Below, piece by piece: positions 265-47,720 of a DNA stretch of 59,942 bases. The translations under genes and the position numbers were made by a program. The notes under the pieces are model-generated. The model saw nothing but the letters and a program-made list of their open reading frames with translations. It had not been told where the DNA came from and did not search any database. Every line of letters begins with the position of its first letter. The first letter of the stretch is position 1. Source of the stretch: a virus (lineage: Duplodnaviria > Heunggongvirae > Uroviricota > Caudoviricetes); IMG/VR virus record IMGVR_UViG_3300045988_167837. One strand, 5' to 3'.

Positions 265-1365
265 ATGAGCGAGTCCAAATCGCCGGATGCCCTGAGAGCA
301 ATGGTAGCCGGTACGCTGGCTAATTTTCAGCACCCAACCCTGAAACACAACCTGACTACGCTTAAAGCGTTACACCATGTTGCGTTGATGGATGACACAC
401 TGCATGTCGAACTAATCATGCCTTTCGTGTGGAATAAGCCTTTTGAAGACCTGAAAGAGCAATGTAGTGGTGATCTGCTACGTATCACTGGCGCAAAGGC
501 TATTGACTGGAAGCTGTCGTACAACATTGCCACGCTTAAGCGCGTCAAAAACCAACCAGGCATTAATGGCGTTAAGAACATTATCGCCGTCAGCTCAGGC
601 AAGGGCGGCGTGGGTAAATCCTCCACGGCGGTAAACCTGGCACTGGCGTTGGCTGCTGAAGGTGCGAAAGTTGGTATTTTGGATGCCGATATCTATGGTC
701 CATCAATTCCAACCATGCTGGGCGCGGAAAACCAACGTCCAACCTCACCGGACGGTACTCACATGGCACCTATCATGTCTCATGGCCTGGCAACCAACTC
801 TATTGGTTATCTGGTCACCGACGACAATGCAATGGTGTGGCGTGGACCGATGGCCAGCAAGGCGCTGATGCAGATGTTGCAGGAAACACTGTGGCCTGAT
901 CTGGACTATCTCGTTCTCGATATGCCACCGGGCACTGGTGATATTCAATTGACGCTGGCGCAGAACATTCCTGTAACTGGTGCGGTTGTGGTAACTACGC
1001 CGCAAGACATCGCGCTGATCGATGCGAAGAAAGGCATTGTGATGTTCGAAAAAGTCGAAGTGCCGGTACTGGGTATCGTTGAAAACATGAGTGTGCATAT
1101 TTGCAGTAACTGCGGTCATCACGAGCCAATTTTTGGCACCGGTGGCGCACAGAAACTGGCCGAGAAATACAACACGCAGTTGTTAGGCCAAATGCCACTT
1201 CATATCTCTCTTCGTGAAGATCTGGATAACGGAACACCAACCGTTATTAGTCGTCCAGATAGTGAATTTACGGCTATTTATCGTGACCTCGCAGATCGCG
1301 TTGCTGCCCAAATGTATTGGCAAGGTGAAGTAATACCTGGCGAAATCGCATTCCGCGCAGTGTGA
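265..1365 (+). CDS. apbC: Fe-S cluster carrier ATPase ApbC/Mrp
   Basis: 366-aa ORF, near-identical over its length to remembered E. coli Mrp ([24 protein letters not shown]-loop, CxxC motif ICSNCGHH); SD-like AAGGAG upstream of ATG. Confidence 0.95.
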
Positions 1366-1374
1366 TAAAAAGGT

Positions 1375-1500
1375 GGTGCTTTTGCCGTTACGCACCACCC
1401 CGTCAGTAGCTGAACAGGAGGGACAGCTGATAGAAACAGAAGCCACTGGAGCACCTCAAAAACACCATCATACACTAAATCAGTAAGTTGGCAGCATCAC
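1375..1500 (-). mobile_element. insA: IS1 remnant: left terminal inverted repeat plus first 24 codons of insA (truncated)
   Basis: rc of 1462-1500 is GGTGATGCTGCCAACTTACTGATTTAGTGTATGATGGTG (IS1 terminus); ORF 1183..1446 begins [24 protein letters not shown] (InsA N-terminus) and then runs into antisense apbC sequence, so the IS is truncated about 126 bp in. Confidence 0.65.
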
Positions 1501-1611
1501 CGAGCGCCAGCGGCGAACATATGAGCTTCGGAAATACTAGACATTCTTAACTCCGTTGTTTTCTAGTTGTGGTTATTTTCACAAATAAGAAAAGATAGAA
1601 AACAATTTATT

Positions 1612-1640
1612 TAAGGCCACAACTTATGGCCTTTATTTAT
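1612..1640. terminator. hairpin (AAGGCCA...TGGCCTT) followed by T-rich tract
   Basis: Perfect 7-bp GC-rich inverted repeat with 7-nt loop followed by TATTTATT; no adjacent plus-strand gene to assign it to. Confidence 0.3.
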
Positions 1641-1663
1641 TCATGCCGAAGGATTTGTAGCGT

Positions 1664-2044
1664 CTAATTGCCGGATAAAATGGGGTGAGGTGCTTGCCAG
1701 TAGGCTCCACCGTTCCATGTGAACCCCATGCGAATAAGAGTGTTTATTGCGGCTTTGGTAGACTCCGATTCGACACTGGCTTTACGAAACTCTTGAACCT
1801 CTTTCGCCAACTTGTATGTAATTGTGCAGGGGACGATTGCAGCCCAGCCTTTCTCATGACTGTTAATGACCATCTGGATGTGACCATCCAGAATAGGTTG
1901 ATTAGGCATGTTATTGAAAATGTCTGCCTGTTTTTGAATGTGAAGAAAAAGCCTTGCCAGCGCCATTTGCTCACTACGAGACAAGGGATTATCAAGAGGG
2001 CTTTTTGCAAAAGCTGCTATACGCTGTGCATCAATGCCAAACAT
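1664..2044 (-). CDS. hypothetical protein (126 aa)
   Basis: ORF with start abutting the stop of the upstream ORF 2044..2748 (operon-like arrangement). Confidence 0.4.
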   Translation of the reverse strand: MFGIDAQRIAAFAKSPLDNPLSRSEQMALARLFLHIQKQADIFNNMPNQPILDGHIQMVINSHEKGWAAIVPCTITYKLAKEVQEFRKASVESESTKAAINTLIRMGFTWNGGAYWQAPHPILSGN

Positions 2045-2748
2045 CAGCGCACCTCACCATCTTTATGGCTGGAGTTAACTTCCGTCATTAAATGTCTGAC
2101 GTAATCGACAAGAGAGCCGCCTGGTGGAATCTGGCATTCCTCAACTAACTGGAAGTAGATATCCGCTGCATTACGTGTATTGCTACCCGCGCATATTCTT
2201 TCTTCCCGAAGTGCATGAAGCTCGTTGATCAAACGGTCACACTCTCCGTTACGCTGATCCACAACGGCCTCAAGCTCTGCGACGCGTTCACCTGGCGTCT
2301 TACCTTCTTTGCGTTGGATGGTAACGACGAAATCGCCAATTGCAGGGACGTTGTAATCCAGCTCAAGGTAGTTTTTGGCACCGCTGCGGACGAACTCACC
2401 CGCGAACATGGTGGCGAACATCGCAGAGGCCACTTCTCCGTTGAAAAGTGACTCCAGATCTAACGGAGTCCCGGCAGCAAGAGCCTCTTTTGCTGTATCC
2501 ATTGCATCCATGAACCGATCAAACTCACTAGCGCGCTTTTCCAGGTCTTTCCATTGCTCGCTCCAACGTTTGGCAACGAAGTCTATGAATGTTTTCGCGG
2601 ATTCATCAAAATTCCCCTCAAACTTAACGATGCCTTTATCAATAATGATCTGGCCTACCGCATCCTCTGCATAACCTTTCAATGTAAACTTGAAAGGAAA
2701 ATCGGAATGGCCTGTGACGTTAAAATGCTCTAACTGGAGGTTGCTCAT
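2044..2748 (-). CDS. hypothetical protein (234 aa)
   Basis: Long ORF, no recognisable motif. Confidence 0.5.
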   Translation of the reverse strand: MSNLQLEHFNVTGHSDFPFKFTLKGYAEDAVGQIIIDKGIVKFEGNFDESAKTFIDFVAKRWSEQWKDLEKRASEFDRFMDAMDTAKEALAAGTPLDLESLFNGEVASAMFATMFAGEFVRSGAKNYLELDYNVPAIGDFVVTIQRKEGKTPGERVAELEAVVDQRNGECDRLINELHALREERICAGSNTRNAADIYFQLVEECQIPPGGSLVDYVRHLMTEVNSSHKDGEVR

Positions 2749-2809
2749 GTGTTTTTCTCTTATCGTTTAGTAACTACATTCTTACATAAATTAAGTAAGC
2801 ATTTACCTA

Positions 2810-4495
2810 TCATTTAACGCGTTTGAAAACGTATACGCTGACTGTGATCCCTGTGTCTTCAAACTCGTTGGTAAACGACTTCCCTCTGGCATAAACGTAA
2901 TTATCCATCGTCATCCAGTCCAGTATTGGCGCAGTGCCCGGCAATACTGCTACAAGACGCCCGCCGACTTTCAGATGCCCCAGCGCAGCCAGCGTGTGCT
3001 CTCTATGACGACCAAGCGAGTACGGCGGGTTCATAACGATTTTGTCGAACTGATAACCTGCGTTGTCCTCAGACCACTTTATGAAGTCGCAGCAAATCGT
3101 GTTCGTATACCCTTTTCCACGCAGGATATCAGCGAAGAGAGGTGCGATTTCTATGCAGGTAACATCTTCCAGATCGGCGTCAATATAGGCCAGAAGATCC
3201 CCACGTCCGGCTTGAGGCTCCAACAGCTTCTCACCAGGCTTCAATTCAGTGGCTCTTGCAACGTACTCAGCAATCAAGCGTGGGGTAGGGTAGAACTGGT
3301 GTGATTTTGTATCCGGTATTAAACCGGTAGCCACAATCGTATTTAGCGTATGGCCGATGTCATACGGGAACTGCCAGTGCTTTTTCTCCTGCACGCCGCC
3401 AATGAAGCTCAGTGTGCGCTCAAGCTCTTCCACCTGCGACTTCTGGAGAGCTGAATCAGAGAAGTACCATACACCTTTGTCTTTGCTCAATCGCCCGTCA
3501 CGAAGCGCAGTGCGAACCGGCACGGAGATCGTCTTCTGGATTAAACCGAACTGCTTTGGTGCCCGTGTTTTTGGCGCAGTTCGGCATGGCGCGGGGATTG
3601 CAGCAGGCATACTGTAAGCCAGCACCTCATTCAACTTCCAGGCCACGTCAGGATGTATTTCAAAGTGAACGTTGCCGTTCTTGAACATCTTCACGCGCAT
3701 CAGATTTCCATCGACGTTCATCCAGTCACCGGTCTGGCAGTCGTTTGCCCGATACGCAGCTGATAGCACCTCAGCAGTGCGGTTGATGGTAATAAATTCT
3801 TTGTGCGCGAAGAAATGAAGCAAGACACGCAGATCGTCGATGTAGTCCTCTTTGCGATAGTTCACGCTAACGCTGTCCCGCCAGAAATCAGAAATGCAGT
3901 CAGCGATTATCAGCCGCTCGCTGAAACCATTTGTCTTATTTGTCTTGTGCACAGGACTCAGCGCCTTAAACAAGCCATACACGCGCTCAGAGAGATATTT
4001 GTGCCTGTCATTCAGCAAATTAAGCATCGTGGGTATGACCGTTTCTGCTTTGAACTCCGGTACACCAACGAACTCTTTAACCTTCATCTGGTAGCCGGTT
4101 CTGTCAGTTTTGATGACTTCCTGTTTGCCCTCTATAAACTGCTCGCGCCACTCATCTCGACGGGAAGCTGGCATGATCAGCAAAACGTTAGTCATGTCCG
4201 TGACCTTCCTCCAGTACTCGGCCCAAATATTCTGTTTCACCCATTCCAGATCGACTTTATCCAACCAACCTCGATTTAAACGCGAGCGATCTTCATCTGG
4301 TCGATGGTTTAGTTTCAGCAGGCGATTAATCATGTTGTGGCGTTCGTCGCCATAAACGAAGTTGTGAACCTGATACATGAAGGCGATCTCTTTCTCGCAC
4401 TCGGCCACAATTTCGTGGATAACGTTCATTTCCTGACGATAATCGATAGCAGTGTTTGAGCTGGCATCGTCGATGATGGAAAGGGCTGTATTCAT
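2810..4495 (-). CDS. putative DNA methyltransferase with large N-terminal domain of unknown function (561 aa)
   Basis: C-terminal region has SAM-MTase-like motifs (LEPQAGRGDLL then IVMNPPY motif IV, typical of N6-adenine/N4-cytosine MTases); N-terminal about 380 aa without recognisable motifs. Confidence 0.6.
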   Translation of the reverse strand: MNTALSIIDDASSNTAIDYRQEMNVIHEIVAECEKEIAFMYQVHNFVYGDERHNMINRLLKLNHRPDEDRSRLNRGWLDKVDLEWVKQNIWAEYWRKVTDMTNVLLIMPASRRDEWREQFIEGKQEVIKTDRTGYQMKVKEFVGVPEFKAETVIPTMLNLLNDRHKYLSERVYGLFKALSPVHKTNKTNGFSERLIIADCISDFWRDSVSVNYRKEDYIDDLRVLLHFFAHKEFITINRTAEVLSAAYRANDCQTGDWMNVDGNLMRVKMFKNGNVHFEIHPDVAWKLNEVLAYSMPAAIPAPCRTAPKTRAPKQFGLIQKTISVPVRTALRDGRLSKDKGVWYFSDSALQKSQVEELERTLSFIGGVQEKKHWQFPYDIGHTLNTIVATGLIPDTKSHQFYPTPRLIAEYVARATELKPGEKLLEPQAGRGDLLAYIDADLEDVTCIEIAPLFADILRGKGYTNTICCDFIKWSEDNAGYQFDKIVMNPPYSLGRHREHTLAALGHLKVGGRLVAVLPGTAPILDWMTMDNYVYARGKSFTNEFEDTGITVSVYVFKRVK

Positions 4496-4636
4496 AATTA
4501 CACCATTAAATAATTTGTTTTCTGATTGGTGTAATTATCGCAAACTTGAAAAGGCATAAAAGCTGCATTCATAGGCGTTACAGCAGATTTAAGGCGTAAA
4601 AATGGGGGCTGTCGCCCCCTGTCGACTGGTGCTGTA

Positions 4637-5203
4637 TTAGAGTGCGTATTGCGTTTTGTGCGGCTGCTTATTCAAGTCATGGCGATGCGTGAGCTCCCGC
4701 ATCATGTCTTCAAGGCGACTCTTTGTGTCGTCGAGCTGGTCGGCCATTGCACCTAAAAGCTGGCGAACGGCCATCGGACCGTCGCTGTTTAGTGATGGCA
4801 TTTTAGAACCTGCTTTAGAAGACATAAGGTTGATTGCAGACATCAACATCGTTAGAGAGGATTTAAGCCCGGCAATTTCACGATCTTTGCTGGCAATAAT
4901 CGTCTCACTTTTGTTACCGTCATCAGTTTCTTGAGTCTCGCTCACCATATCCAAAGTCGCTTGCAACTTATCAGCTCTCTCTTTTTCAGCAAGGTAATGA
5001 ACACCGAAATGGTGTGCCAAAGCTACAATCTGAGTTGGCTCTTCAAAGGTGGAATTAAAATTAAGTATTGTAAACAGTCTCTCAAATATGGAAACGTCTT
5101 CTATTCCTCGAAGAATGGCTAACATTTTGACCAGTTCATTAGCATCCATTTCTTCGAATAAGGCGTTTTGTTCATCAGCTATCGCTTTGCATTTCTTGCA
5201 CAT
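4637..5203 (-). CDS. hypothetical protein (188 aa)
   Basis: ORF preceded (on coding strand) by conserved palindromic motif and GGAAAAACAC-ATG start context shared with other genes here. Confidence 0.5.
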   Translation of the reverse strand: MCKKCKAIADEQNALFEEMDANELVKMLAILRGIEDVSIFERLFTILNFNSTFEEPTQIVALAHHFGVHYLAEKERADKLQATLDMVSETQETDDGNKSETIIASKDREIAGLKSSLTMLMSAINLMSSKAGSKMPSLNSDGPMAVRQLLGAMADQLDDTKSRLEDMMRELTHRHDLNKQPHKTQYAL

Positions 5204-5221
5204 GTGTTTTTCCTAATGCTT

Positions 5222-5235
5222 AAACAAGTTGTTTT
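5222..5235 (-). promoter_or_regulatory. conserved palindromic motif AAACAAGTTGTTTT (copy 1), about 30 nt upstream of a start codon
   Basis: Near-perfect palindrome AAACAA-N-TTGTTT recurring upstream of several minus-strand genes. Confidence 0.3.
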
Positions 5236-5500
5236 CTTATTGTCTTTATTGTGATGTGGCATAAAAGGGGAGCAAGCTAAACGTAAAGGTGCAAACTCTC
5301 TATTTCGGTCAACGAAACACAAGGGCCATTTGGCCCTTGTCATTAACACTTTGCTTTACGAACTAACGGATAAGCGAAGTAGATCGCCAAACCAATGAGG
5401 ACGCCATCAGAAATGACAGACATCATCTTTCCCGTAAAATCCACCAACACCGCCATCACCAGAAGAGCAATGACGATCACAAGCCGGAATCTCTCAAGCA

Positions 5501-5926
5501 TTAGAGATAAGCATCCAGTGACAACTGAAGCGCCTGGGCGATCTTTTTCAGTGCCTGCTCTTCTTGTTCACCAATGCCGTCCTGATCGGCAATATCAAGG
5601 CACAGACACAGAACATCGACCGCCTCTGGAGTACCCGCAATATCAGACAGCTCACGAATAGCCTGTGCATTAGCAGAACGAGGGGACGCTTCGTAACGAG
5701 CACGGATATTGGCGCTCATTTGGGCAATTTCACCAGCAAACGGAGAAAACGCAGGCAGAGCTGCAATTGTCTTCTCAAGAATGGCAATTTCTTTTGCGTC
5801 ACATGTGCCGTCGGCATAGGAGATCATGTACGCGCCCCACACGGTGGCCTCAACCGCATCACGGTTCTCCATTTTTTTGACTTCGATAACAGCTTTACGA
5901 GTTTTCTTTTTGAAGAAACCTAACAT
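5501..5926 (-). CDS. hypothetical protein, possibly TerB-like (141 aa)
   Basis: ORF with acidic helical C-terminal region; weak resemblance to TerB/DjlA-N-type domains from memory only. Confidence 0.4.
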   Translation of the reverse strand: MLGFFKKKTRKAVIEVKKMENRDAVEATVWGAYMISYADGTCDAKEIAILEKTIAALPAFSPFAGEIAQMSANIRARYEASPRSANAQAIRELSDIAGTPEAVDVLCLCLDIADQDGIGEQEEQALKKIAQALQLSLDAYL

Positions 5927-5950
5927 GTGCTTTCCTTTTATTATTTGTCA

Positions 5951-5964
5951 AAACAAGTTGTTTT
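5951..5964 (-). promoter_or_regulatory. conserved palindromic motif AAACAAGTTGTTTT (copy 2)
   Basis: Same motif as at 5222, again just upstream of a minus-strand start codon (5926). Confidence 0.3.
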
Positions 5965-6019
5965 CTAATTACATAAATTGCTTACGCAGAGATGGTCAAT
6001 GCATATGCACTAACAGCCG

Positions 6020-6208
6020 TCAGAAATAACCAAGTACCGAACCAACTGGAAAAACAAAAATCCCAACTACACGAGCCAAGGTCATGCCAGCCTGAAACTG
6101 GAGATCGCCAGAGCAAACAAGTTTTATAATGTTCGATACCCAACCGGCGGCCATAAGGGCAAGAATTGCCAGCCAAATTTTTCCAAAGTGATTTGAAAAC
6201 CAGTTCAT
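6020..6208 (-). CDS. small hydrophobic protein (62 aa), putative membrane protein
   Basis: Short ORF rich in hydrophobic residues (WLAILALMAAGWV...VVGIFVFPVGSVLGYF). Confidence 0.3.
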   Translation of the reverse strand: MNWFSNHFGKIWLAILALMAAGWVSNIIKLVCSGDLQFQAGMTLARVVGIFVFPVGSVLGYF

Positions 6209-6217
6209 ACAACCGCC

Positions 6218-6712
6218 TTAGTCACAGCATGATCCTGAGTAACTGGATGAACTTGAGGTATCGCATCCACCGCCATCCCATCCAGAGTGACAGGACGCTC
6301 CACTGGAGTGGTGGTAATTGTCGTCGACGAAGGTGTGGTGATGGATGAATCCGGCATCAAAAGGCTCTGACCGGCTGGAACGGCTACCGTCGCCAGTGAA
6401 ACTATAATGAGAACGTAGGCCATTGGTTTCAGCCTCTTTCTTTGAAAATTTTCCATTCGAACTGTCCTTGTTGTTTTTCTCCTTCACTAAAGGCCGTGCA
6501 TTTTTCGCTTCGCGTGAAGAACCAGAGGCAACAATCGCCCCCACGTTCGCAACAACTGACGCTTGATTATCTAAACGTTCATTCAGCAACCGAACGGTAG
6601 TCTCTAGTTCATCAAGGCGTGACATAACACGACCGCTAAATAATTCGGCCAAAATTTGACGTAAAGAACGAGGACGTTTAGTTACAGAAGTGAAATAGGT
6701 TTGACGTGCCAT
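6218..6712 (-). CDS. hypothetical protein (164 aa; 3' portion overlaps alternative ORF 6205..6456 encoding a putative signal-peptide protein)
   Basis: Longest ORF in region; C-terminal half is low-complexity (Ser/Gly/Cys-rich) so the true gene may end earlier with 6205..6456 a separate small secreted protein. Confidence 0.3.
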   Translation of the reverse strand: MARQTYFTSVTKRPRSLRQILAELFSGRVMSRLDELETTVRLLNERLDNQASVVANVGAIVASGSSREAKNARPLVKEKNNKDSSNGKFSKKEAETNGLRSHYSFTGDGSRSSRSEPFDAGFIHHHTFVDDNYHHSSGASCHSGWDGGGCDTSSSSSYSGSCCD

Positions 6713-6860
6713 GTGGACTCCATCCAGTGTCAGAAAGAGTTGCGGCTGGCGATTGCCAGCCGCCTTTCTCGTTCCATCCTGGAACTGTGTCTTACCGACA
6801 CATTGTCATCCTGACGCCGATAAGATACATGATTTAAAATGATAGGTAAACACTTACTTA

Positions 6861-7451
6861 CTATTTATTATAAACAAAACCAATATCTTTCTTGTGAGGC
6901 ATATCTGCTGCTGAAAAAGCTGCGATCTTCGCGAGTCGATCACATATTTCATTTTCACGATGCCCGGCGTGACCTTTAACCCACTTCCAGCGAACATTAT
7001 GTCGACTTGCGGCCTCATCCAGACGCTTCCACAGATCAACATTCTTTACCGGTTTTTTGTCAGAAGTCATCCATCCATTGCGTTTCCACCATTTCATCCA
7101 CTGTGTCATGCCGTTTTTCAGATACTGGCTATCAGAGTGCAAAATAACGTTGCATGGATATTTCAAACGCTCCAGCCCGATAAGTGCCCCCATCATCTCC
7201 ATGCGGTTATTGGTGGTGCTATGAAAACCATCTGAGAACTCGCGTTCCTCACCACGATACTGGAGAACGATACCGTAACCGCCCGGGCCACCCGGATTTT
7301 TAAGGCAAGAGCCATCACTAAAGATTTTCACGGTTTTAAGCTGGGGATTGAACTCTACGACAGGCGTTGTGGGATTGGTGCGGGGGGAATTTTTGTTTTT
7401 GGCTTTTTTGCGAGTTTTTGCTTGCGATCGGGCTGGTGTCTTCGTCGTCAT
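6861..7451 (-). CDS. rnhA: ribonuclease H (RNase HI-like) with basic N-terminal extension
   Basis: RNase H core motifs IFSDGSC...NPGGPGGYG...ERE...HSDSQY...GHAGHRENE; start set at internal Met (MTTKTPARS) of the 224-aa ORF. Confidence 0.8.
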
Positions 7452-41991: not shown

Positions 41992-43161
41992 TCACGTCTT
42001 AATAGTTTCTGCTACGTCGGCTAATATCGCTTCTAGTCGTTCTCCCTCTTCAGGTCTGAAGTAAAGAATGTTGGGGTTAAACCCGTAAAAGACAGTAACG
42101 TCAAGGTCTGGAAGATACTCCTTCCTGCCGACCAAATCGGATGGCTTGTTTTTGTTGTTAAACAATGAAGTTGCCCGGCTGCCACACGTCAGCACATAGG
42201 TCGGACGCACCAGATTGATCTCTTCACGCATAAAGTCGGTGAACTGGCCGATCTCGTCTTTGGTGTAGTCTTTTTCTTTGTCTTTAACCTTCTTGCAAAC
42301 ACCTGTGACATAGAGATCGCCCATGCGTAAATCTCCAGCCGTCAATAGCTTGGCCTTAAAGTCGTCGTATCCGTTCTCCATAAAGTAACCGGTTCGAGCA
42401 TCATTGCCGTTCGCATTGTCCAGAATGATCATGATTTTCGGCTTAATACCAATGCTGGGGCGGATTAGTTCATCACCTAAGCCCATTTCAGCCGCCATCC
42501 GCGTCATGAGTACGTTAATTTCAGCCGAACGTTTGGGGTTCATCTCAAACGGACGTGAGGCTTTAACTGCGTCTATGACAAGGTTTCCCATCAATTCAGC
42601 CTGGTCGCGTAGGCGCTCTGGATCAGTTGCTGGCAGACTGCCTGGCTCGATGGATGCAAACGCCCCTACTTTTTGCAGCGATTCGCGCACTCGACTATTA
42701 CAGGCACGTTTCTCGACAGCTTCTTCGAATTGCGCCAGTGACTCGAATTTGCCGCCAACTTTTTCTCGCGCTCTCATGATGGCTTGGCAGCCATTCTCAG
42801 AACACCCCTTCACAGCAGAGAAGGGCGCATACAGCACCTGGCTGCCATCTTCAAGCGTGCGGATCTCGATTCGGTTAGATGACACGTTAACGTCTGGTGG
42901 CAATACGCGAATGCCATAGGTCAGCGCATCTTTAACCAGCCCCTGGTGTTTATCTTCGCCAAGAATAGTGAGAGCAGCAGCGAAAAACTCTGCGGGATAA
43001 TGAGTTTTCAACCACATAGATTGATAACTGATTAAGGAGTAAGCAACAGAGTGTGATTTGTTGAAGGCATACGCGCCGGATTTCTCAAACATATTCCAGA
43101 TTTCTTCGGCTCGTTCGTGCGTCAGGCCATTGCTCTCTTCGACAACACCGGTAATTTTCAT
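41992..43161 (-). CDS. dnaE: DNA polymerase III alpha (DnaE-type), C-terminal fragment with own start codon
   Basis: Begins MKITGVVEESNGLTHERAEEIWNMFEKSGAYAFNKSHSVAYSLISYQSMWLKTHYPAEFF, the conserved DnaE finger motif; ATG overlaps stop of HNH gene. Confidence 0.8.
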   Translation of the reverse strand: MKITGVVEESNGLTHERAEEIWNMFEKSGAYAFNKSHSVAYSLISYQSMWLKTHYPAEFFAAALTILGEDKHQGLVKDALTYGIRVLPPDVNVSSNRIEIRTLEDGSQVLYAPFSAVKGCSENGCQAIMRAREKVGGKFESLAQFEEAVEKRACNSRVRESLQKVGAFASIEPGSLPATDPERLRDQAELMGNLVIDAVKASRPFEMNPKRSAEINVLMTRMAAEMGLGDELIRPSIGIKPKIMIILDNANGNDARTGYFMENGYDDFKAKLLTAGDLRMGDLYVTGVCKKVKDKEKDYTKDEIGQFTDFMREEINLVRPTYVLTCGSRATSLFNNKNKPSDLVGRKEYLPDLDVTVFYGFNPNILYFRPEEGERLEAILADVAETIKT

Positions 43162-43892
43162 GCAGTCACCTCATCAATCTTCACGAACTCATACCCATTG
43201 GAGGCCAGCCAGTTCCGTTGGCGCTCCCAGCTCCATATCTCTTCACGCATTTCACTATGCAGGCGAATGTGGGCGTCTTCTGGAAGTGCTACAAGATTCC
43301 CAGGGGCGTTATCTATCGTATCGCGGTTAATATGGTGGACATGTTCATCGTCACGTAGCTCCCGACCGAGACGTTCTTTCGCTATCAATCGATGAACGTA
43401 TTCGTATTGCGAAACGCCATTGTTACCAACCAGCTGCATCATGTAGCCGTTGGTTTTTACGATGATGCCACCTTTGTAGTTGTTCGCTTCTTCTCCGATC
43501 TTTCCGCGTTTGGCAGCCGCCAGCTTTTCCTTCGTCTCCGCGCGGATTGTTCTGCCGGTTAGCTTTTTCGAAACGGTGGCCACTCGCTCATCGATATCAG
43601 CACGCAGACCGGCATTCCACGAGGTTTTCCCATACATAGGGTTGCCAGTGCCAGTCCGGGCTTCGGAGAGACGCTTCATACGTTCGTCATTATTTTTGTT
43701 TTTGCCACGATTCCAGGCTGGGGTAGCGGAGATCCGCGCGCTTCCGCGCCTGATCCCCCATTTGGCTAATAAGCGGTCAATATTTGCCTTGCTGCAACCA
43801 GCTTCGGCGGCAATGTCTTCTTTTCTCATCAGGTCAACCATGTAACGCTGACGTAACCATTCTTCTGTGATTTTGTACTTCGTACTCGGCAT
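43158..43892 (-). CDS. HNH homing endonuclease (with NUMOD-like motifs) located between the two dnaE fragments
   Basis: C-terminal HNH motif EYVHRLIAKERLG...EHVHHINRDTIDNAPGNLVALPEDAHIRLH; GNPMYGKT-type motifs. Confidence 0.8.
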   Translation of the reverse strand: MPSTKYKITEEWLRQRYMVDLMRKEDIAAEAGCSKANIDRLLAKWGIRRGSARISATPAWNRGKNKNNDERMKRLSEARTGTGNPMYGKTSWNAGLRADIDERVATVSKKLTGRTIRAETKEKLAAAKRGKIGEEANNYKGGIIVKTNGYMMQLVGNNGVSQYEYVHRLIAKERLGRELRDDEHVHHINRDTIDNAPGNLVALPEDAHIRLHSEMREEIWSWERQRNWLASNGYEFVKIDEVTA

Positions 43893-43907
43893 TTCTAAGA
43901 CTCACTA

Positions 43908-43920
43908 AACAAATTGTTTT
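43908..43920 (-). promoter_or_regulatory. conserved palindromic motif AAACAAATTGTTT (copy 4), upstream of HNH gene
   Basis: Variant of the AAACAA-N-TTGTTT palindrome between the dnaE N-fragment stop and the HNH start. Confidence 0.3.
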
Positions 43921-43940
43921 CTTATCTTATAAATTAATTC

Positions 43941-46304
43941 TCAAATATCGAAGCTCGTTATGTCGGCATTTATTGCCATTGCTTCGGCATAAGTGCGACG
44001 CTCACCATCAGCACAAAGTAGGCGTGCTGCTTTATGGATTTTTCTCGTAGAACCATCATCCAGTGACACTGTCACCCAGCCTTCCTCCGCTCGCTTAATG
44101 AAGTCGCCGCCAATGGATTTCATTTTCTCCATATCTTTTTTCCCGATCGCTTTCCTGACCGAGTCTGCTTCCGCCATTGAGAACCCCGCCAAGATTCGCG
44201 TAGCAGCCATGATCTGTTCCTGATAAATCAGAACTCCGTTTGTGTCGCGAGAGATGTCGTCCAGCATTGGGTGTAAGGAATGTGGGGCCATGAAGCCTTT
44301 GGCCACGGACACATAATCGTCCAACATGCCGGATTGAATCGGGCCAGGTCGGAAGAGCGCAGTTGTAGCGACGACCGTTTTAAAGCTCATTGGCTCAATT
44401 CCACCACCTAAATCTTTAAGCAGCTTGCGCATTGGGCCTGATTCAAGCTGGAATACGCCCTGTGTATACCCTGCAGCAAAACCATCCAGCACCTTGCGAT
44501 CTTCAAGAGAAATGGCATCAAGATTGATATCTTCACCTGTGTTCTCTTTTATGTAGCGTTTTGCACTATCGAGCAAATCGAGAGTTGCCAGGCCAAGCAC
44601 GTCCAGCTTAATTAGGCCCATAGCCTCGCAGTAACGCTTGTCAAATGCGATACAACGCGCGTCACCACGGCGTTCAACCGGTGTACGTTCTGTCAGAGGA
44701 ACACCTGCTACGATCATCCCTGCCGCATGTCTACCAAAGCCACGCATAAGGCTTTGTAACTTGCAGGCTGCATTGAATGCATCAGGATATTTTGTTGCGT
44801 ATTTGTCGAGACTTGCCAGTTGTTCGCGCAGCTCTTCCAATGGAAGGCTATCATCCTCGACGTTCTTCAGTTCTTTTGATACCGCCATATCTGCGGACTC
44901 CACACCATAAATACGAGCGGTGTCACGTAGTGCAGAGGCTGCGCCCAGGTAGGTGAAGTTCGGAATGCCTGCAACGTAATCTTCGCCGTAGCGTTCATTC
45001 AGATACTCGATCACCTCATGGCGACGTGCCTGGCTGAAGTCCAAGTCCGCATCCGGCAAGTCGAGACGCTCAGGGTTGATGAAACGCTCAAACAGAAGAC
45101 CGTGACGGATTGGGTCGACGTTGGTTATGCCTATGCACCACGCCACCAGAGAACCGGCAGAGGAACCACGACCAGGCCCGACAGGAATGCCAGTTTCACG
45201 GCTGTGATTCATCAGATCGCGTACCATCAGGAAGTAACCACAAAATCCCAGGCGAGTAAGCGTGTCCATTTCGTACTTAAGTCGCTCAACATAAACCCTG
45301 TTCTCAGAAGCAGGTGGTGTGTATCCAAACTCTTTTGTGGTAAGACGTTTACGCAGCCCTGCAACAGCCAGTTTCATCAGCGTTGCAGGTTCGTCGTCTG
45401 CCATCTTGGGCAGTGCTGGTGGCAATTCATGCCAGCGCCATGTGCAGGCATCGATAATGGAGTCCTGCGTTGTTGAGGCCATTGCAGCTGTTACCGGCAC
45501 ATCCATGCGAACGGAGAAGGCTTTAAGCGCCTCAAGGAGATGGCGACGACCATTGATGGCGTTATCTCGCTGGTGGGGGATACGCAGACGATGCGGCTGG
45601 TCGATTTTTATGTTGTTCGTAACCATGTGCGCAATGTCTTTAATGTCTGCATCGTCGATCGATTCGTAATAAGCGGGATAGAACGCTACTGGCTCTATTT
45701 TCAGTGCGCTGGCGACTTTCATCGCCCGGACGTTAATCTGGTCGTAGAATGGGGTAGGGTGCGGATAAACCACACTATAGAAGTTGTCTTTTCCACCCGC
45801 TGTAATCAGTGTGCTTATGATTTTTGCAAAATCGTTGCGTTGGAACACGCTACCGATGTCGGAAGTAAGCAGGATGATGTTGCCTTTGGCATATGTAGAA
45901 ACCAACTGTTCGAGCGAGAGACGCGGTACAAAGTAGAACTGTTCTCGTGTGTTGGCCGCCGTCATTAGTTCGCAGATGTCGCGATATCCTTTCTCATTTT
46001 TAATTAGAGCGGTAAACGAGTAGTTACGTCCTCGCTCTAATGATTCCATACATCTCATAGATTCTTTAGCAAGTTTAGCCCGGTGCTCGTATGTGGGATC
46101 ATCAACAATGTTTAGTTTCACACCACAAATAACCGCCATGTCGTCACCAGCGGCACGTTGTAGTGGAATAACGCTCGCAATATTCATGCTATCTGCTGAA
46201 ATTACAGCGGTGTAGCCAGCTTCTCTGGCAATCTTCACCGCGTTTTCTGCTTTTAGAGCCGACTCCCCAAGTGAGAAGTCAGTTCGAACCATCAGTGCCT
46301 TCAT
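43941..46304 (-). CDS. dnaE: DNA polymerase III alpha (DnaE-type), N-terminal fragment (PHP domain and polymerase core)
   Basis: GPGRGSSAGSLVAWCIGITNVDP, LDLPDADLDF, IYQEQIM motifs; homology ends near ...KRAEEG, followed by a 45-aa non-homologous tail. Confidence 0.85.
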   Translation of the reverse strand: MKALMVRTDFSLGESALKAENAVKIAREAGYTAVISADSMNIASVIPLQRAAGDDMAVICGVKLNIVDDPTYEHRAKLAKESMRCMESLERGRNYSFTALIKNEKGYRDICELMTAANTREQFYFVPRLSLEQLVSTYAKGNIILLTSDIGSVFQRNDFAKIISTLITAGGKDNFYSVVYPHPTPFYDQINVRAMKVASALKIEPVAFYPAYYESIDDADIKDIAHMVTNNIKIDQPHRLRIPHQRDNAINGRRHLLEALKAFSVRMDVPVTAAMASTTQDSIIDACTWRWHELPPALPKMADDEPATLMKLAVAGLRKRLTTKEFGYTPPASENRVYVERLKYEMDTLTRLGFCGYFLMVRDLMNHSRETGIPVGPGRGSSAGSLVAWCIGITNVDPIRHGLLFERFINPERLDLPDADLDFSQARRHEVIEYLNERYGEDYVAGIPNFTYLGAASALRDTARIYGVESADMAVSKELKNVEDDSLPLEELREQLASLDKYATKYPDAFNAACKLQSLMRGFGRHAAGMIVAGVPLTERTPVERRGDARCIAFDKRYCEAMGLIKLDVLGLATLDLLDSAKRYIKENTGEDINLDAISLEDRKVLDGFAAGYTQGVFQLESGPMRKLLKDLGGGIEPMSFKTVVATTALFRPGPIQSGMLDDYVSVAKGFMAPHSLHPMLDDISRDTNGVLIYQEQIMAATRILAGFSMAEADSVRKAIGKKDMEKMKSIGGDFIKRAEEGWVTVSLDDGSTRKIHKAARLLCADGERRTYAEAMAINADITSFDI

Positions 46305-46482
46305 GTGTTTTTACCTTTCTGGTTTTTTTGATTTTGTCATTGGGGAAGCCTACGAACTTCCCATGCATCGAAATCGCAACTTCTTTTGCTGATTGGTGAC
46401 AATCGGGCTTGTCTGGACACACCAGACAAGCCTTACCTGTTTCAGAAGCAGCGATAAGAGAGCCGAAACATCCTTTACGCAC
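46279..46482 (-). CDS. small Cys-rich protein (67 aa), hypothetical
   Basis: ORF in cobS-dnaE gap, overlaps dnaE start by 26 nt. Confidence 0.25.
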   Translation of the reverse strand: MRKGCFGSLIAASETGKACLVCPDKPDCHQSAKEVAISMHGKFVGFPNDKIKKTRKVKTHEGTDGSN

Positions 46483-46484
46483 GA

Positions 46485-47720
46485 TTAACCAAATATTTTT
46501 TGAACAACTTCACGAGCCGCTTGTGCAGAAGCTGAAGGGAGTTTGTTAATGAAAGAACGCTCAATACCTGTCACAAAGTCGCCTCGCATCATTCCAATCT
46601 TGGCTGACAACAAAAGTTCACGAGGGCCAATTGGCTGACTAATAAGGTGTTCTTCGTATCCATCGCGAACGATACCGGCAAACTTAACCATCTTTTCAGC
46701 GTATTCATCCACGATGCCTGCATTTGTCAACATGTTGATCTCTGCGTCTTTGCTCATGTATTTCACATTCGAAACGATGCCAAAACGCGAAAAGTTCGCG
46801 GCGTTCTGGATGTTTGTACCCTGGTACAAGCCGGTTTCATCACCAGATCCGTTCGTGTTGCCAGTGCCAATGAAAGCAAACCGTTCATGCGGAGTAATGC
46901 GACGCCATTCTGGAGTTGCCTCTTTGATGACCAACGCTTCACCTTCCAGCACTGGCTGATACACGCCAAGAATTTGTGGAAACGCAAAGTCGTATTCATC
47001 CGCGAGGTAAACCCAGCCATGCTTCATTGCGAGCGCAAGCAAGCCAGGTTCGAAATACGTAGAGCCATCACGCGCCAGAATTTGCCCCGTAACATGTGCC
47101 TCTTCCATTGATGCTGTATGTTGGGCACGGATCAACGGACGATTGAGCAAAGCACATAGCTGTGTAGGCAATGACGATTTGCCTGTTCCTGCATGACCCC
47201 ACAAATAGCCAGGTATGCCAAGTTCAAGCATCATGAAAATATCTTTGATCAGTTCGAAGTCGCCATATACGTAGCCCTTCTTCACTTCTGGAACGAACTC
47301 TGGATACGGCGTATTGACGTTGACGCTAACCATGAGCGGCGTCCCACGTTTTGTTCCGAGTTCTTCCACCGTTACGTTTAGCAGTTCGTGAGCTGCGACC
47401 AGATCTGTCTTGTACTCAACTGTGCCTGTGTAGCCAGGGCTACTGGTCAAGACAGAAGATTTGGCCATTTCGCTTTTTTGCTCGGCACGTTTAGCTTGAA
47501 TTGCATCAAGTGCCTTTTTCGATAGCGTTGGTTCATCTGGAAACTGCGTTGTGTACATTTTCAGTACGGTGTCAGGATCGGCATCTTTTACTGACTCAGG
47601 AATGCCCTCGCAATTACCATTGGCTACATGGGACTTAAAATAGTGAAATGATTTGCCGCACCACTTGCAAACAAGGTAATCAGAAGGATTTTTTTCATTT
47701 TGCAGTGCAGTAGTCGTCAT
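46485..47720 (-). CDS. cobS: AAA+ ATPase, CobS/MoxR-like
   Basis: Walker A GHAGTGKSS, Walker B YLADEYDF; paired with vWA-domain gene. Confidence 0.7.
   Translation of the reverse strand: MTTTALQNEKNPSDYLVCKWCGKSFHYFKSHVANGNCEGIPESVKDADPDTVLKMYTTQFPDEPTLSKKALDAIQAKRAEQKSEMAKSSVLTSSPGYTGTVEYKTDLVAAHELLNVTVEELGTKRGTPLMVSVNVNTPYPEFVPEVKKGYVYGDFELIKDIFMMLELGIPGYLWGHAGTGKSSLPTQLCALLNRPLIRAQHTASMEEAHVTGQILARDGSTYFEPGLLALAMKHGWVYLADEYDFAFPQILGVYQPVLEGEALVIKEATPEWRRITPHERFAFIGTGNTNGSGDETGLYQGTNIQNAANFSRFGIVSNVKYMSKDAEINMLTNAGIVDEYAEKMVKFAGIVRDGYEEHLISQPIGPRELLLSAKIGMMRGDFVTGIERSFINKLPSASAQAAREVVQKIFG

Follow-up and report, generated by a model that had tools for sequence, protein, structure and literature searches.

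Organization of the interrupted dnaE locus

The 59,942-nucleotide (nt) stretch of DNA analyzed here, referred to as the window, is the IMG/VR virus record IMGVR_UViG_3300045988_167837 (Caudoviricetes), whose sequence identifies it as an SSU5-like phage-plasmid. Its dnaE gene, encoding a C-family DNA polymerase, is divided into two open reading frames (ORFs), dnaE-N and dnaE-C, with a gene for an HNH endonuclease between them. The best matches of the window are the Escherichia phages CMS-2020a and PhiR41_1 (95–96%) and Cyrano (91%), followed by Salmonella phage SSU5 (85%); all four are without about 800 bp at this position and have a single dnaE ORF of 1168 or 1172 amino acids (aa). An earlier reading of the window, the original prediction, had described a DnaE-type polymerase gene split by a free-standing HNH homing endonuclease gene, and ORF calling and Pfam searches returned the same three ORFs, with the same coordinates, lengths and domain assignments. 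All three are co-oriented on the minus strand (Table 1).

Table 1. Features of the interrupted dnaE locus (window coordinates).
Feature	Coordinates	Strand	Remarks
dnaE-N	43941..46304	(-)	N-terminal fragment of the polymerase, 787 aa, with PHP, palm/thumb and the larger part of both the fingers and the mini-domain
dnaE-N stop codon	43941-43943	(-)	TGA
dnaE-N tail (WVTVSLDDGSTRKIH...ADITSFDI)	43944..44078	(-)	the 45 extra codons of the original prediction; mini-domain strands 1-2 and helix
Spacer between dnaE-N stop and HNH ATG	43893..43940	(-)	48 nt; conserved in all type-A cassettes
Free-standing HNH homing endonuclease gene (candidate)	43158..43892	(-)	244 aa; Pfam, PHROG
NUMOD3 of the HNH gene	43623-43676	(-)	aa 73-90; Pfam
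HNH_3 core of the HNH gene	43278-43400	(-)	aa 165-205; Pfam; includes HVHHINRDTIDNAPGNLVALPEDAHIRLH
Shine-Dalgarno GAGGTG for dnaE-C	43167..43172	(-)	inside the HNH gene at its 3' end; 5 nt upstream of the ATG
dnaE-C	41992..43161	(-)	389-aa C-terminal polymerase fragment; ATG 43161-43159; last mini-domain strand, FNKSHS part of the fingers, helix-hairpin-helix (HhH) domain, C-terminal domain resembling uracil-DNA glycosylase (UDG)
Type-A cassette (imported mosaic tract)	~43070..44300	(-)	boundaries +/-40 nt or so

Pfam matches in dnaE-N comprise PHP, DNA_pol3_alpha (5.8e-74) and DNA_pol3_finger, and those in dnaE-C comprise HHH_6 together with a UDG match below threshold. With PHP, palm/thumb, fingers and HhH domains detected by Pfam and Foldseek, the whole polymerase is identified as a C-family DnaE; the OB fold and the tau-binding domain of bacterial replicative DnaE are missing from it. 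The C-terminal ~180 aa of dnaE-C (41992–42550) resemble family-4 UDG/UdgX, with Foldseek E-values of ~1e-4 to 1UI0, 1L9G and 6AIL, and because of this domain the PGAP annotation often names the C fragment 'uracil-DNA glycosylase'.

The product of the intervening ORF scored 31.9 bits against HNH_3 (cutoff 24.8) and 27.6 bits against NUMOD3 (cutoff 20.4), and it matched phrog_21964, 'HNH endonuclease', over its full length (2e-161). Its H..N..H residues are intact, and the same residues are kept in an Aeromonas homologue of 39% identity. The gene is a separate ORF preceded by stop codons, with no match to an intron model or HINT domain. Core and module, an ORF of its own, presence/absence polymorphism and mosaic flanks would together place it among the free-standing HNH homing endonuclease genes (HEGs), with cleavage activity predicted. 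Across the E. coli, Enterobacter and Cronobacter copies, its ratio of nonsynonymous to synonymous substitution (dN/dS, Nei-Gojobori method) was 0.17–0.21. This dnaE junction is the sole location of the gene in PLSDB, and no paralogue was found elsewhere in the window. The exact protein is present on 850 contigs, its 90% cluster takes in Salmonella, Citrobacter, E. albertii and K. variicola, and its relatives in phage genomes share only the HNH core, at no more than 41% identity. In at least one assembly, the exact HNH, dnaE-N and dnaE-C proteins all occur on a 4,892,987-bp contig, where the phage-plasmid was joined to a chromosome-sized contig through either integration or misassembly.

As predicted, dnaE-C has its own ATG overlapping the HNH stop, in the form of an ATGA at 43161–43158, and the spacer carries two further in-frame stops (TAG and TGA) beyond the dnaE-N TGA. 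An identical layout, with ORFs of 787, 244 and 389 aa, the 48-nt spacer and the ATGA overlap, was observed in six diverged cassette copies, across which the stop codon, the Shine-Dalgarno (SD) sequence and the ATG are kept. No promoter or terminator was found on the coding strand of the spacer, and the region around the dnaE-C start showed no unusual RNA structure (z = +0.34). The possibility that a regulatory hairpin hides the start of the HNH gene, as it does in mobE and I-TevI, was also considered and found unsupported: the 91-nt fold had a z of -2.15 and was equaled by 6 of 200 shuffles, and the predicted spacer hairpin is weak, its 3' arm differing among cassette copies without compensating changes, so that the stem is not conserved.

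Position of the break and constraint on the two halves

Aligned end to end with the 1172-aa uninterrupted relatives, dnaE-N and dnaE-C cover all 1172 positions and add about four residues, namely a short tail on dnaE-N and Met-Lys on dnaE-C. The claim that no polymerase residues are missing is therefore borne out. Identity to the uninterrupted relatives is 94–95% for dnaE-N over residues 1–787 and 95% for dnaE-C. The original prediction had also stated that dnaE-N loses homology after KRAEEG and runs for 45 more codons; this is correct in comparison with canonical DnaE but not with uninterrupted SSU5-type DnaE, which can be aligned through the 45 tail residues (GWIDVELEDGTTQRIH...; GWIDVELEDGTTQRIHRAEHFKCEDG...). 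These residues are homologous to positions ~743–785 of the uninterrupted relatives.

A comparison with solved Pol III alpha structures using phmmer mapped a lineage-specific insertion of ~52 aa between residues 733 and 734 of E. coli alpha, in the fingers domain, and the break falls inside this insertion. In the AlphaFold2 model of an uninterrupted relative (P0063), which has a mean pLDDT of 78.7 and values of 80–91 over residues 741–800, the corresponding mini-domain consists of strands 743–748 and 753–757, helix 772–778, loop 779–785 and strand 786–793, followed by a helix at 798–812. By alignment to this model, the break would lie in the surface loop 779–785, between helix 772–778 and strand 786–793. 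The model itself matched the Pol III alpha structures 2HPI, 2HNH and 5FKV with Foldseek E-values of 1e-52 to 1e-45. The FNKSHS motif and the remaining part of the fingers are encoded on dnaE-C, so that both halves would be needed.

The mini-domain (43944–44078 plus 43120–43155 in the window; ~742–797 in P0063) is beta-rich and without a Pfam family. It was present in every DnaE examined from Enterobacterales, Aeromonas and Acinetobacter phage-plasmids, split or not, and absent from canonical DnaE and from a homologue in a Stenotrophomonas metagenome-assembled genome (P0013).

Substitution patterns point to constraint on both halves. The dnaE flank carried by the cassette gave a dN/dS of 0.02–0.06 (11–30 synonymous versus 1–5 nonsynonymous differences), and these changes arose in the split state; for dnaE-C the value was 0.01–0.02. 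Both halves have full-length ORFs in all copies examined, from E. coli, Enterobacter, Cronobacter, Buttiauxella, Klebsiella, Acinetobacter and Aeromonas. The low dN/dS argues for a functional two-piece polymerase. Full coverage of the uninterrupted protein, separate translation signals for the downstream half and purifying selection on both halves would class the locus with the genes-in-pieces, and precedent together with a break in a modeled loop suggests that the fragments may reassemble into an active enzyme.

Polymorphism, mosaic structure and related junctions

The HNH cassette was detected in 23 of the 107 complete E. coli genomes that have this plasmid region, always on plasmids. In PLSDB, a 1351-nt stretch is 97–100% identical in 20 independent complete E. 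coli plasmids, and 25 plasmids contain the whole cassette, the Enterobacter copies being 95% and the Cronobacter copies 90% identical. Because it recurs in many independent plasmids and contigs, the cassette cannot be put down to misassembly or to a mutation private to one element. The original prediction had named two results that would tell against it, a continuous dnaE frame on resequencing and a lack of uninterrupted alleles in any relative; the split arrangement instead recurs across many independent assemblies, and uninterrupted, endonuclease-free alleles occur in close relatives. Plasmids with 97–100% identical backbones can be cassette-free. Among the collected protein sequences, split N fragments are as numerous as uninterrupted proteins: the 787-aa cluster P0103 has 1105 members and a 790-aa cluster 383, compared with 1693–2676 members in the clusters of 1172-aa uninterrupted proteins.

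Compared with its closest endonuclease-free E. coli relatives, the window is 97–100% identical over most of dnaE, but identity falls abruptly to ~65% from ~44300 to the HNH gene and for ~90 nt beyond it, to ~43070. Within this ~1.2-kb tract, the window is 96–99% identical to the Enterobacter, Cronobacter and Buttiauxella cassettes, whose backbones outside it are only 70–90% identical. The type-A cassette delimited in this way comprises ~330–390 nt of the 3' end of dnaE-N, the spacer, the HNH gene and ~90 nt of the 5' end of dnaE-C. The left crossover lies at dnaE-N nt ~1980–2040 in the window and, among other HEG-positive E. coli plasmids, at ~1980 in L015, ~1860–1920 in L014 and ~1740–1800 in L013, where the adjoining stretch is Enterobacter-like. 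Such differing crossovers would mark independent import events and are the footprints expected of repeated gene conversion with variable co-converted flanks. Flanks of this kind are known for T4-type free-standing endonucleases (PMC2988022), and nuclease genes are reported, as a general finding, to lie at the boundaries of phage genetic exchange (PMC10448857). The comparison supports the view that the window plasmid was not split de novo but probably acquired a pre-formed split cassette circulating among phage-plasmids.

The segment of dnaE codons ~670–815 (~450 nt) exists in at least four versions on otherwise near-identical E. coli-type backbones (L003, L001 and L009 versus the window), namely the 1172-type (as in PhiR41_1), the 1168-type (as in CMS-2020a) and two split versions, type A and type B, and forms a hypervariable spot in a conserved gene.

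The same junction is occupied by different genes in other lineages. In Klebsiella phage-plasmids (243 PLSDB records), it holds a 233-aa NUMOD4+HNH_3+HTH gene unrelated to the HNH gene of the window; a NUMOD4+HNH_3+HTH gene also occupies the junction in an E. albertii plasmid with an E. coli-like backbone, and A. baumannii phage-plasmids have a NUMOD4-HNH gene that is 43% identical to the Klebsiella gene. An Aeromonas jandaei plasmid carries the 39%-identical homologue of the window HNH, with the same ...ACTGCATGAA stop/start overlap, and a metagenomic relative (L016) carries a 166-aa member of the same PHROG. The tails of the N fragments (...ADITSFDI*, ...ADIVDFGV*, ...AEIPSFYE*) and the heads of the C fragments (MKITGVVEESNGL, MKIAKVISEQEGL, MKIKSLNILNDGL) are homologous across lineages.

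Two further alleles are split without an endonuclease. Buttiauxella p1WJP83 encodes ORFs of 787 and 389 aa separated by a 69-nt gap; the body of the HNH ORF is deleted, which leaves the 48-nt spacer, the start of the gene and its final ~15 nt with the SD. The E. kobei-type allele (P0109), present on at least 19 contigs, encodes 785 and 389 aa separated by a 72-nt spacer with an AAGAGG SD. Equivalent SD sequences precede dnaE-C in other alleles as well: AAGGTGG in the HNH-deleted Buttiauxella allele, GAGG in Acinetobacter and AAGAGG in the E. kobei type. In L019 (5359–5430), the 72-nt E. kobei-type spacer also has an inverted repeat, CAGCT…AGCTG, upstream of the SD, which may fold into a hairpin with a regulatory or terminator-like role.

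Split as well as uninterrupted members occur in every flank lineage: a type-B-like flank is found in the 1168-aa class, and a 1172-like flank in the E. kobei-type split. Switches between the two states have therefore taken place repeatedly, and precisely at this site. Common to Klebsiella, Acinetobacter, Aeromonas and metagenomic relatives, the split junction is, to judge by these homologies, old.

The metagenomic relative L016 (Logan SRR27947036 contig, 1006–7290) encodes its polymerase as three or more pieces, and every gap between them holds an HNH gene. Read in order, the locus has a 719-aa piece ending in an intein N-half, an HNH_3 gene (255 aa), a 198-aa piece starting with an intein C-half (…IVVHN|S), the 166-aa HNH gene of the window's family and a 398-aa piece with HHH_6 and UDG domains; a 180-aa ORF and another HNH_3 ORF lie upstream of the first polymerase piece. 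The split intein with its HNH gene is located at a different dnaE junction, FQLES|SGM.

Interpretation, alternatives and related systems

These observations are very probably explained by a free-standing HNH HEG that resides inside the dnaE of an SSU5-like phage-plasmid as part of a mobile split cassette, with the polymerase made as two polypeptides. The cassette would consist of divergent dnaE codons on both sides, the tail and stop codon that end the upstream half, the HNH gene, and a ribosome-binding site and ATG within the last bases of that gene. When a cassette-bearing element meets the uninterrupted dnaE of a related phage-plasmid, the HNH protein would cut or nick that allele, and recombinational repair would copy the cassette in with variable lengths of flanking dnaE. 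The cassette itself may be spared self-cleavage because its own flanks are only ~65% identical to the target. Translation would then yield polypeptides of ~87 and ~43 kDa, without RNA or protein splicing, and the first strand of dnaE-C (KITGVVEE) would complete the sheet of the dnaE-N tail and could hold the halves together. Of the two routes offered by the original prediction, production of two polypeptides after endonuclease invasion stands as regards the two-piece polymerase and the free-standing gene; invasion de novo does not, as a ready-made cassette appears to have been imported.

Several points weigh against this explanation. A tblastn search of PLSDB with the 115-aa flank did not find an uninterrupted allele with a type-A flank; it returned 26 records of at least 95% identity and none between 66% and 95%. 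A word-indexed protein search with a 165-aa flank yielded short fragments only, yet led to the intein-bearing relative. The mosaic could also arise from ordinary homologous recombination between plasmids, without initiation by an endonuclease. The backbone dN/dS may largely predate the split, and the clean comparison within the cassette comprises a few dozen substitutions. In some records, the PGAP call for the C fragment is a pseudogene. Finally, strand complementation is drawn from the modeled secondary structure of an uninterrupted relative and not from a model of the complex.

A different and rather improbable history would make the mini-domain, instead of an insertion that happens to tolerate a break, the reassembly device of an ancient split that predates the divergence of Enterobacterales, Aeromonas and Acinetobacter, with the uninterrupted alleles being secondary fusions after loss of the endonuclease. 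The conserved ...ADI-xxFxx* tail and MKI... head would then belong to a landing pad of long standing, occupied in turn by two HNH families that are unrelated. On the same view, if halves from different sources could not work together because the cassette flanks have diverged so far, the cassette would also serve to exclude rival phage-plasmids or to render hybrids between them incompatible.

The fragments could also be decaying pseudogenes of a dnaE inactivated by the insertion, the plasmid using the Pol III of its host. In some records the C fragment carries the PGAP remark 'incomplete; missing N-terminus', and plasmid maintenance may do without a phage polymerase; however, the intact frames in seven genera, dN/dS values of 0.01–0.06 that include post-split substitutions within the cassette, the conserved translation signals and the abundance of split alleles, on a par with uninterrupted ones (the 1105-member cluster being one example), render decay improbable. 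The remaining alternatives would all restore a single polypeptide. The group I intron raised by the original prediction, in which splicing would remove the HNH ORF and restore a continuous dnaE mRNA, has a parallel in phage polymerase-gene introns of the SPO1 type, which can hold HNH ORFs, and the HNH gene is oriented as dnaE. Nevertheless, an Rfam scan of 42800–44400 at E≤10 returned zero matches; non-coding sequence amounts to 48 nt upstream of the HNH ORF and none downstream; both sides of that ORF are homologous codons of the host mini-domain; the halves of the HEG-less split alleles are merely 69–72 nt apart; and diverged copies retain the stop, SD and ATG. An intron is accordingly very improbable.

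Split-intein-mediated trans-splicing, with the dnaE-N tail and dnaE-C head as intein halves, deserves consideration insofar as DnaE genes are known in which a free-standing endonuclease gene separates the halves of a split intein (PMC2677866), L016 has such an arrangement at FQLES|SGM, and the tail (WVTVSLDDGS...) superficially resembles intein block A. The residues at the junction, however, exceed those of uninterrupted relatives by only ~4–9 aa and belong to the host mini-domain, and the whole tail and head (45 + ~14 aa) are far below the ~130 aa of a mini-intein. The N-junction is without Cys/Ser and the C-junction without HN-Cys/Ser/Thr, no HINT or Intein Pfam match was obtained for dnaE-N or dnaE-C, nor, at E≤10, for fused junctions from five lineages, and L016, a true intein carrier, ends this junction in a plain stop without an intein. 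We consider trans-splicing highly unlikely here. Translational recoding, by readthrough or by ribosomal bypass from ...GAT ATT TGA to ATG AAA ATT as in T4 gene 60, has on paper a take-off/landing pair in the ATT that precedes the stop and recurs as the third codon of dnaE-C, and gene 60 bypassing has been linked to a mobile element. The gap of ~790 nt, versus 50 nt in gene 60, three in-frame stops after dnaE-N and the lack of a matched codon pair at the Acinetobacter junction speak against it, and the conserved SD and ATG argue for independent initiation, so that its likelihood is close to negligible.

Among known systems, the closest analogue of the proposed mobile split cassette is gene 43A/43B with seg43(25) in Aeromonas phage 25 (Petrov et al., PMC2988022), in which a replicative polymerase gene is likewise divided into two cistrons at one site. 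In phage 25 and its relatives, some genomes have the HEG in the gap and others a short spacer alone, as at the dnaE locus, which shares with gene 43 the three states of uninterrupted, split with HEG and split without HEG. The gene 43 halves co-purify and are active (PMC2988022). The phage 25 case concerns a B-family polymerase, a GIY-YIG seg endonuclease and lytic T4-like phages, in contrast to a C-family DnaE in temperate phage-plasmids, where the site is taken by either of two HNH families unrelated to each other and the gene is broken within a lineage-specific mini-domain.

Split nrdA in phage Aeh1, like split gene 43 in phage 25, yields an active enzyme, and T4 39/60/mobA is a further analogue of an endonuclease-split gene (PMC2988022). 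In Aeh1 nrdA/mobE (Friedrich et al. 2007, PMC2988022), a free-standing HNH-family HEG likewise interrupts an essential gene of nucleotide metabolism or replication, the enzyme is put together from two polypeptides with no splicing involved, and the HEG forms part of the host operon. The host gene there encodes ribonucleotide reductase and the mobE case is essentially confined to one phage lineage, whereas the dnaE cassette is polymorphic in hundreds of sequenced plasmids with visible recombination tracts. The fractured genes (Dassa et al. 2009, PMC2677866), three DnaE loci included, have the same order of host-N, endonuclease ORF and host-C in one operon, in DnaE of a phage-like kind, an arrangement matched exactly by L016 at its different junction; they differ from the present junction in having a split intein and endonucleases of GIY-YIG or Vsr-like rather than HNH type. 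Cyanobacterial split DnaE (the Ssp/Npu DnaE intein) also produces a C-family alpha subunit from two genes, but its halves lie at separate loci, are trans-spliced and are split at a different position, with no endonuclease gene.

Genes-in-pieces are known in phages; the present case involves a new host gene in a plasmid family that is common in the clinic. Clinical Enterobacterales and A. baumannii often carry phage-plasmids of the SSU5/pHCM2/pKpn-like and Acinetobacter types. A large share of these encode the replicative polymerase in two pieces, for which annotation pipelines use inconsistent labels: 'dnaE', 'uracil-DNA glycosylase', 'helix-hairpin-helix protein' and pseudogene all occur. We found no description of this split in the SSU5 and phage-plasmid papers retrieved, none of which contains the term 'HNH', nor support there for the inducibility of a split-allele phage-plasmid, the induction study being silent on allele state. 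The dnaE junction offers a strong typing marker for phage-plasmid lineages and calls for caution in pangenome and pseudogene calls. The locus is a natural allelic series in which near-identical backbones carry one of two uninterrupted forms, either type of endonuclease gene or an empty split. This opens to testing in E. coli the endonuclease-driven gene conversion between phage-plasmids, the tolerance of a C-family polymerase for a break in the fingers, and the possible influence of such cassettes on competition and recombination boundaries between these elements.

Two minor observations concern the gene and its surroundings. Three close DnaE homologues of odd length (P0089, P0107 and P0132; 1075, 950 and 879 aa) have a Pfam RecA (PF00154) hit inside the polymerase, which suggests another insertion or fusion variant in dnaE. 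A 67-aa ORF at 46279–46482 (minus strand), with no Pfam hit on record, overlaps the dnaE-N start and lies between a CobS-like AAA ATPase gene (46485–47720) and dnaE; ORFs of equal length in the same place are the annotated SSU5_051 of SSU5 and one called in L019.

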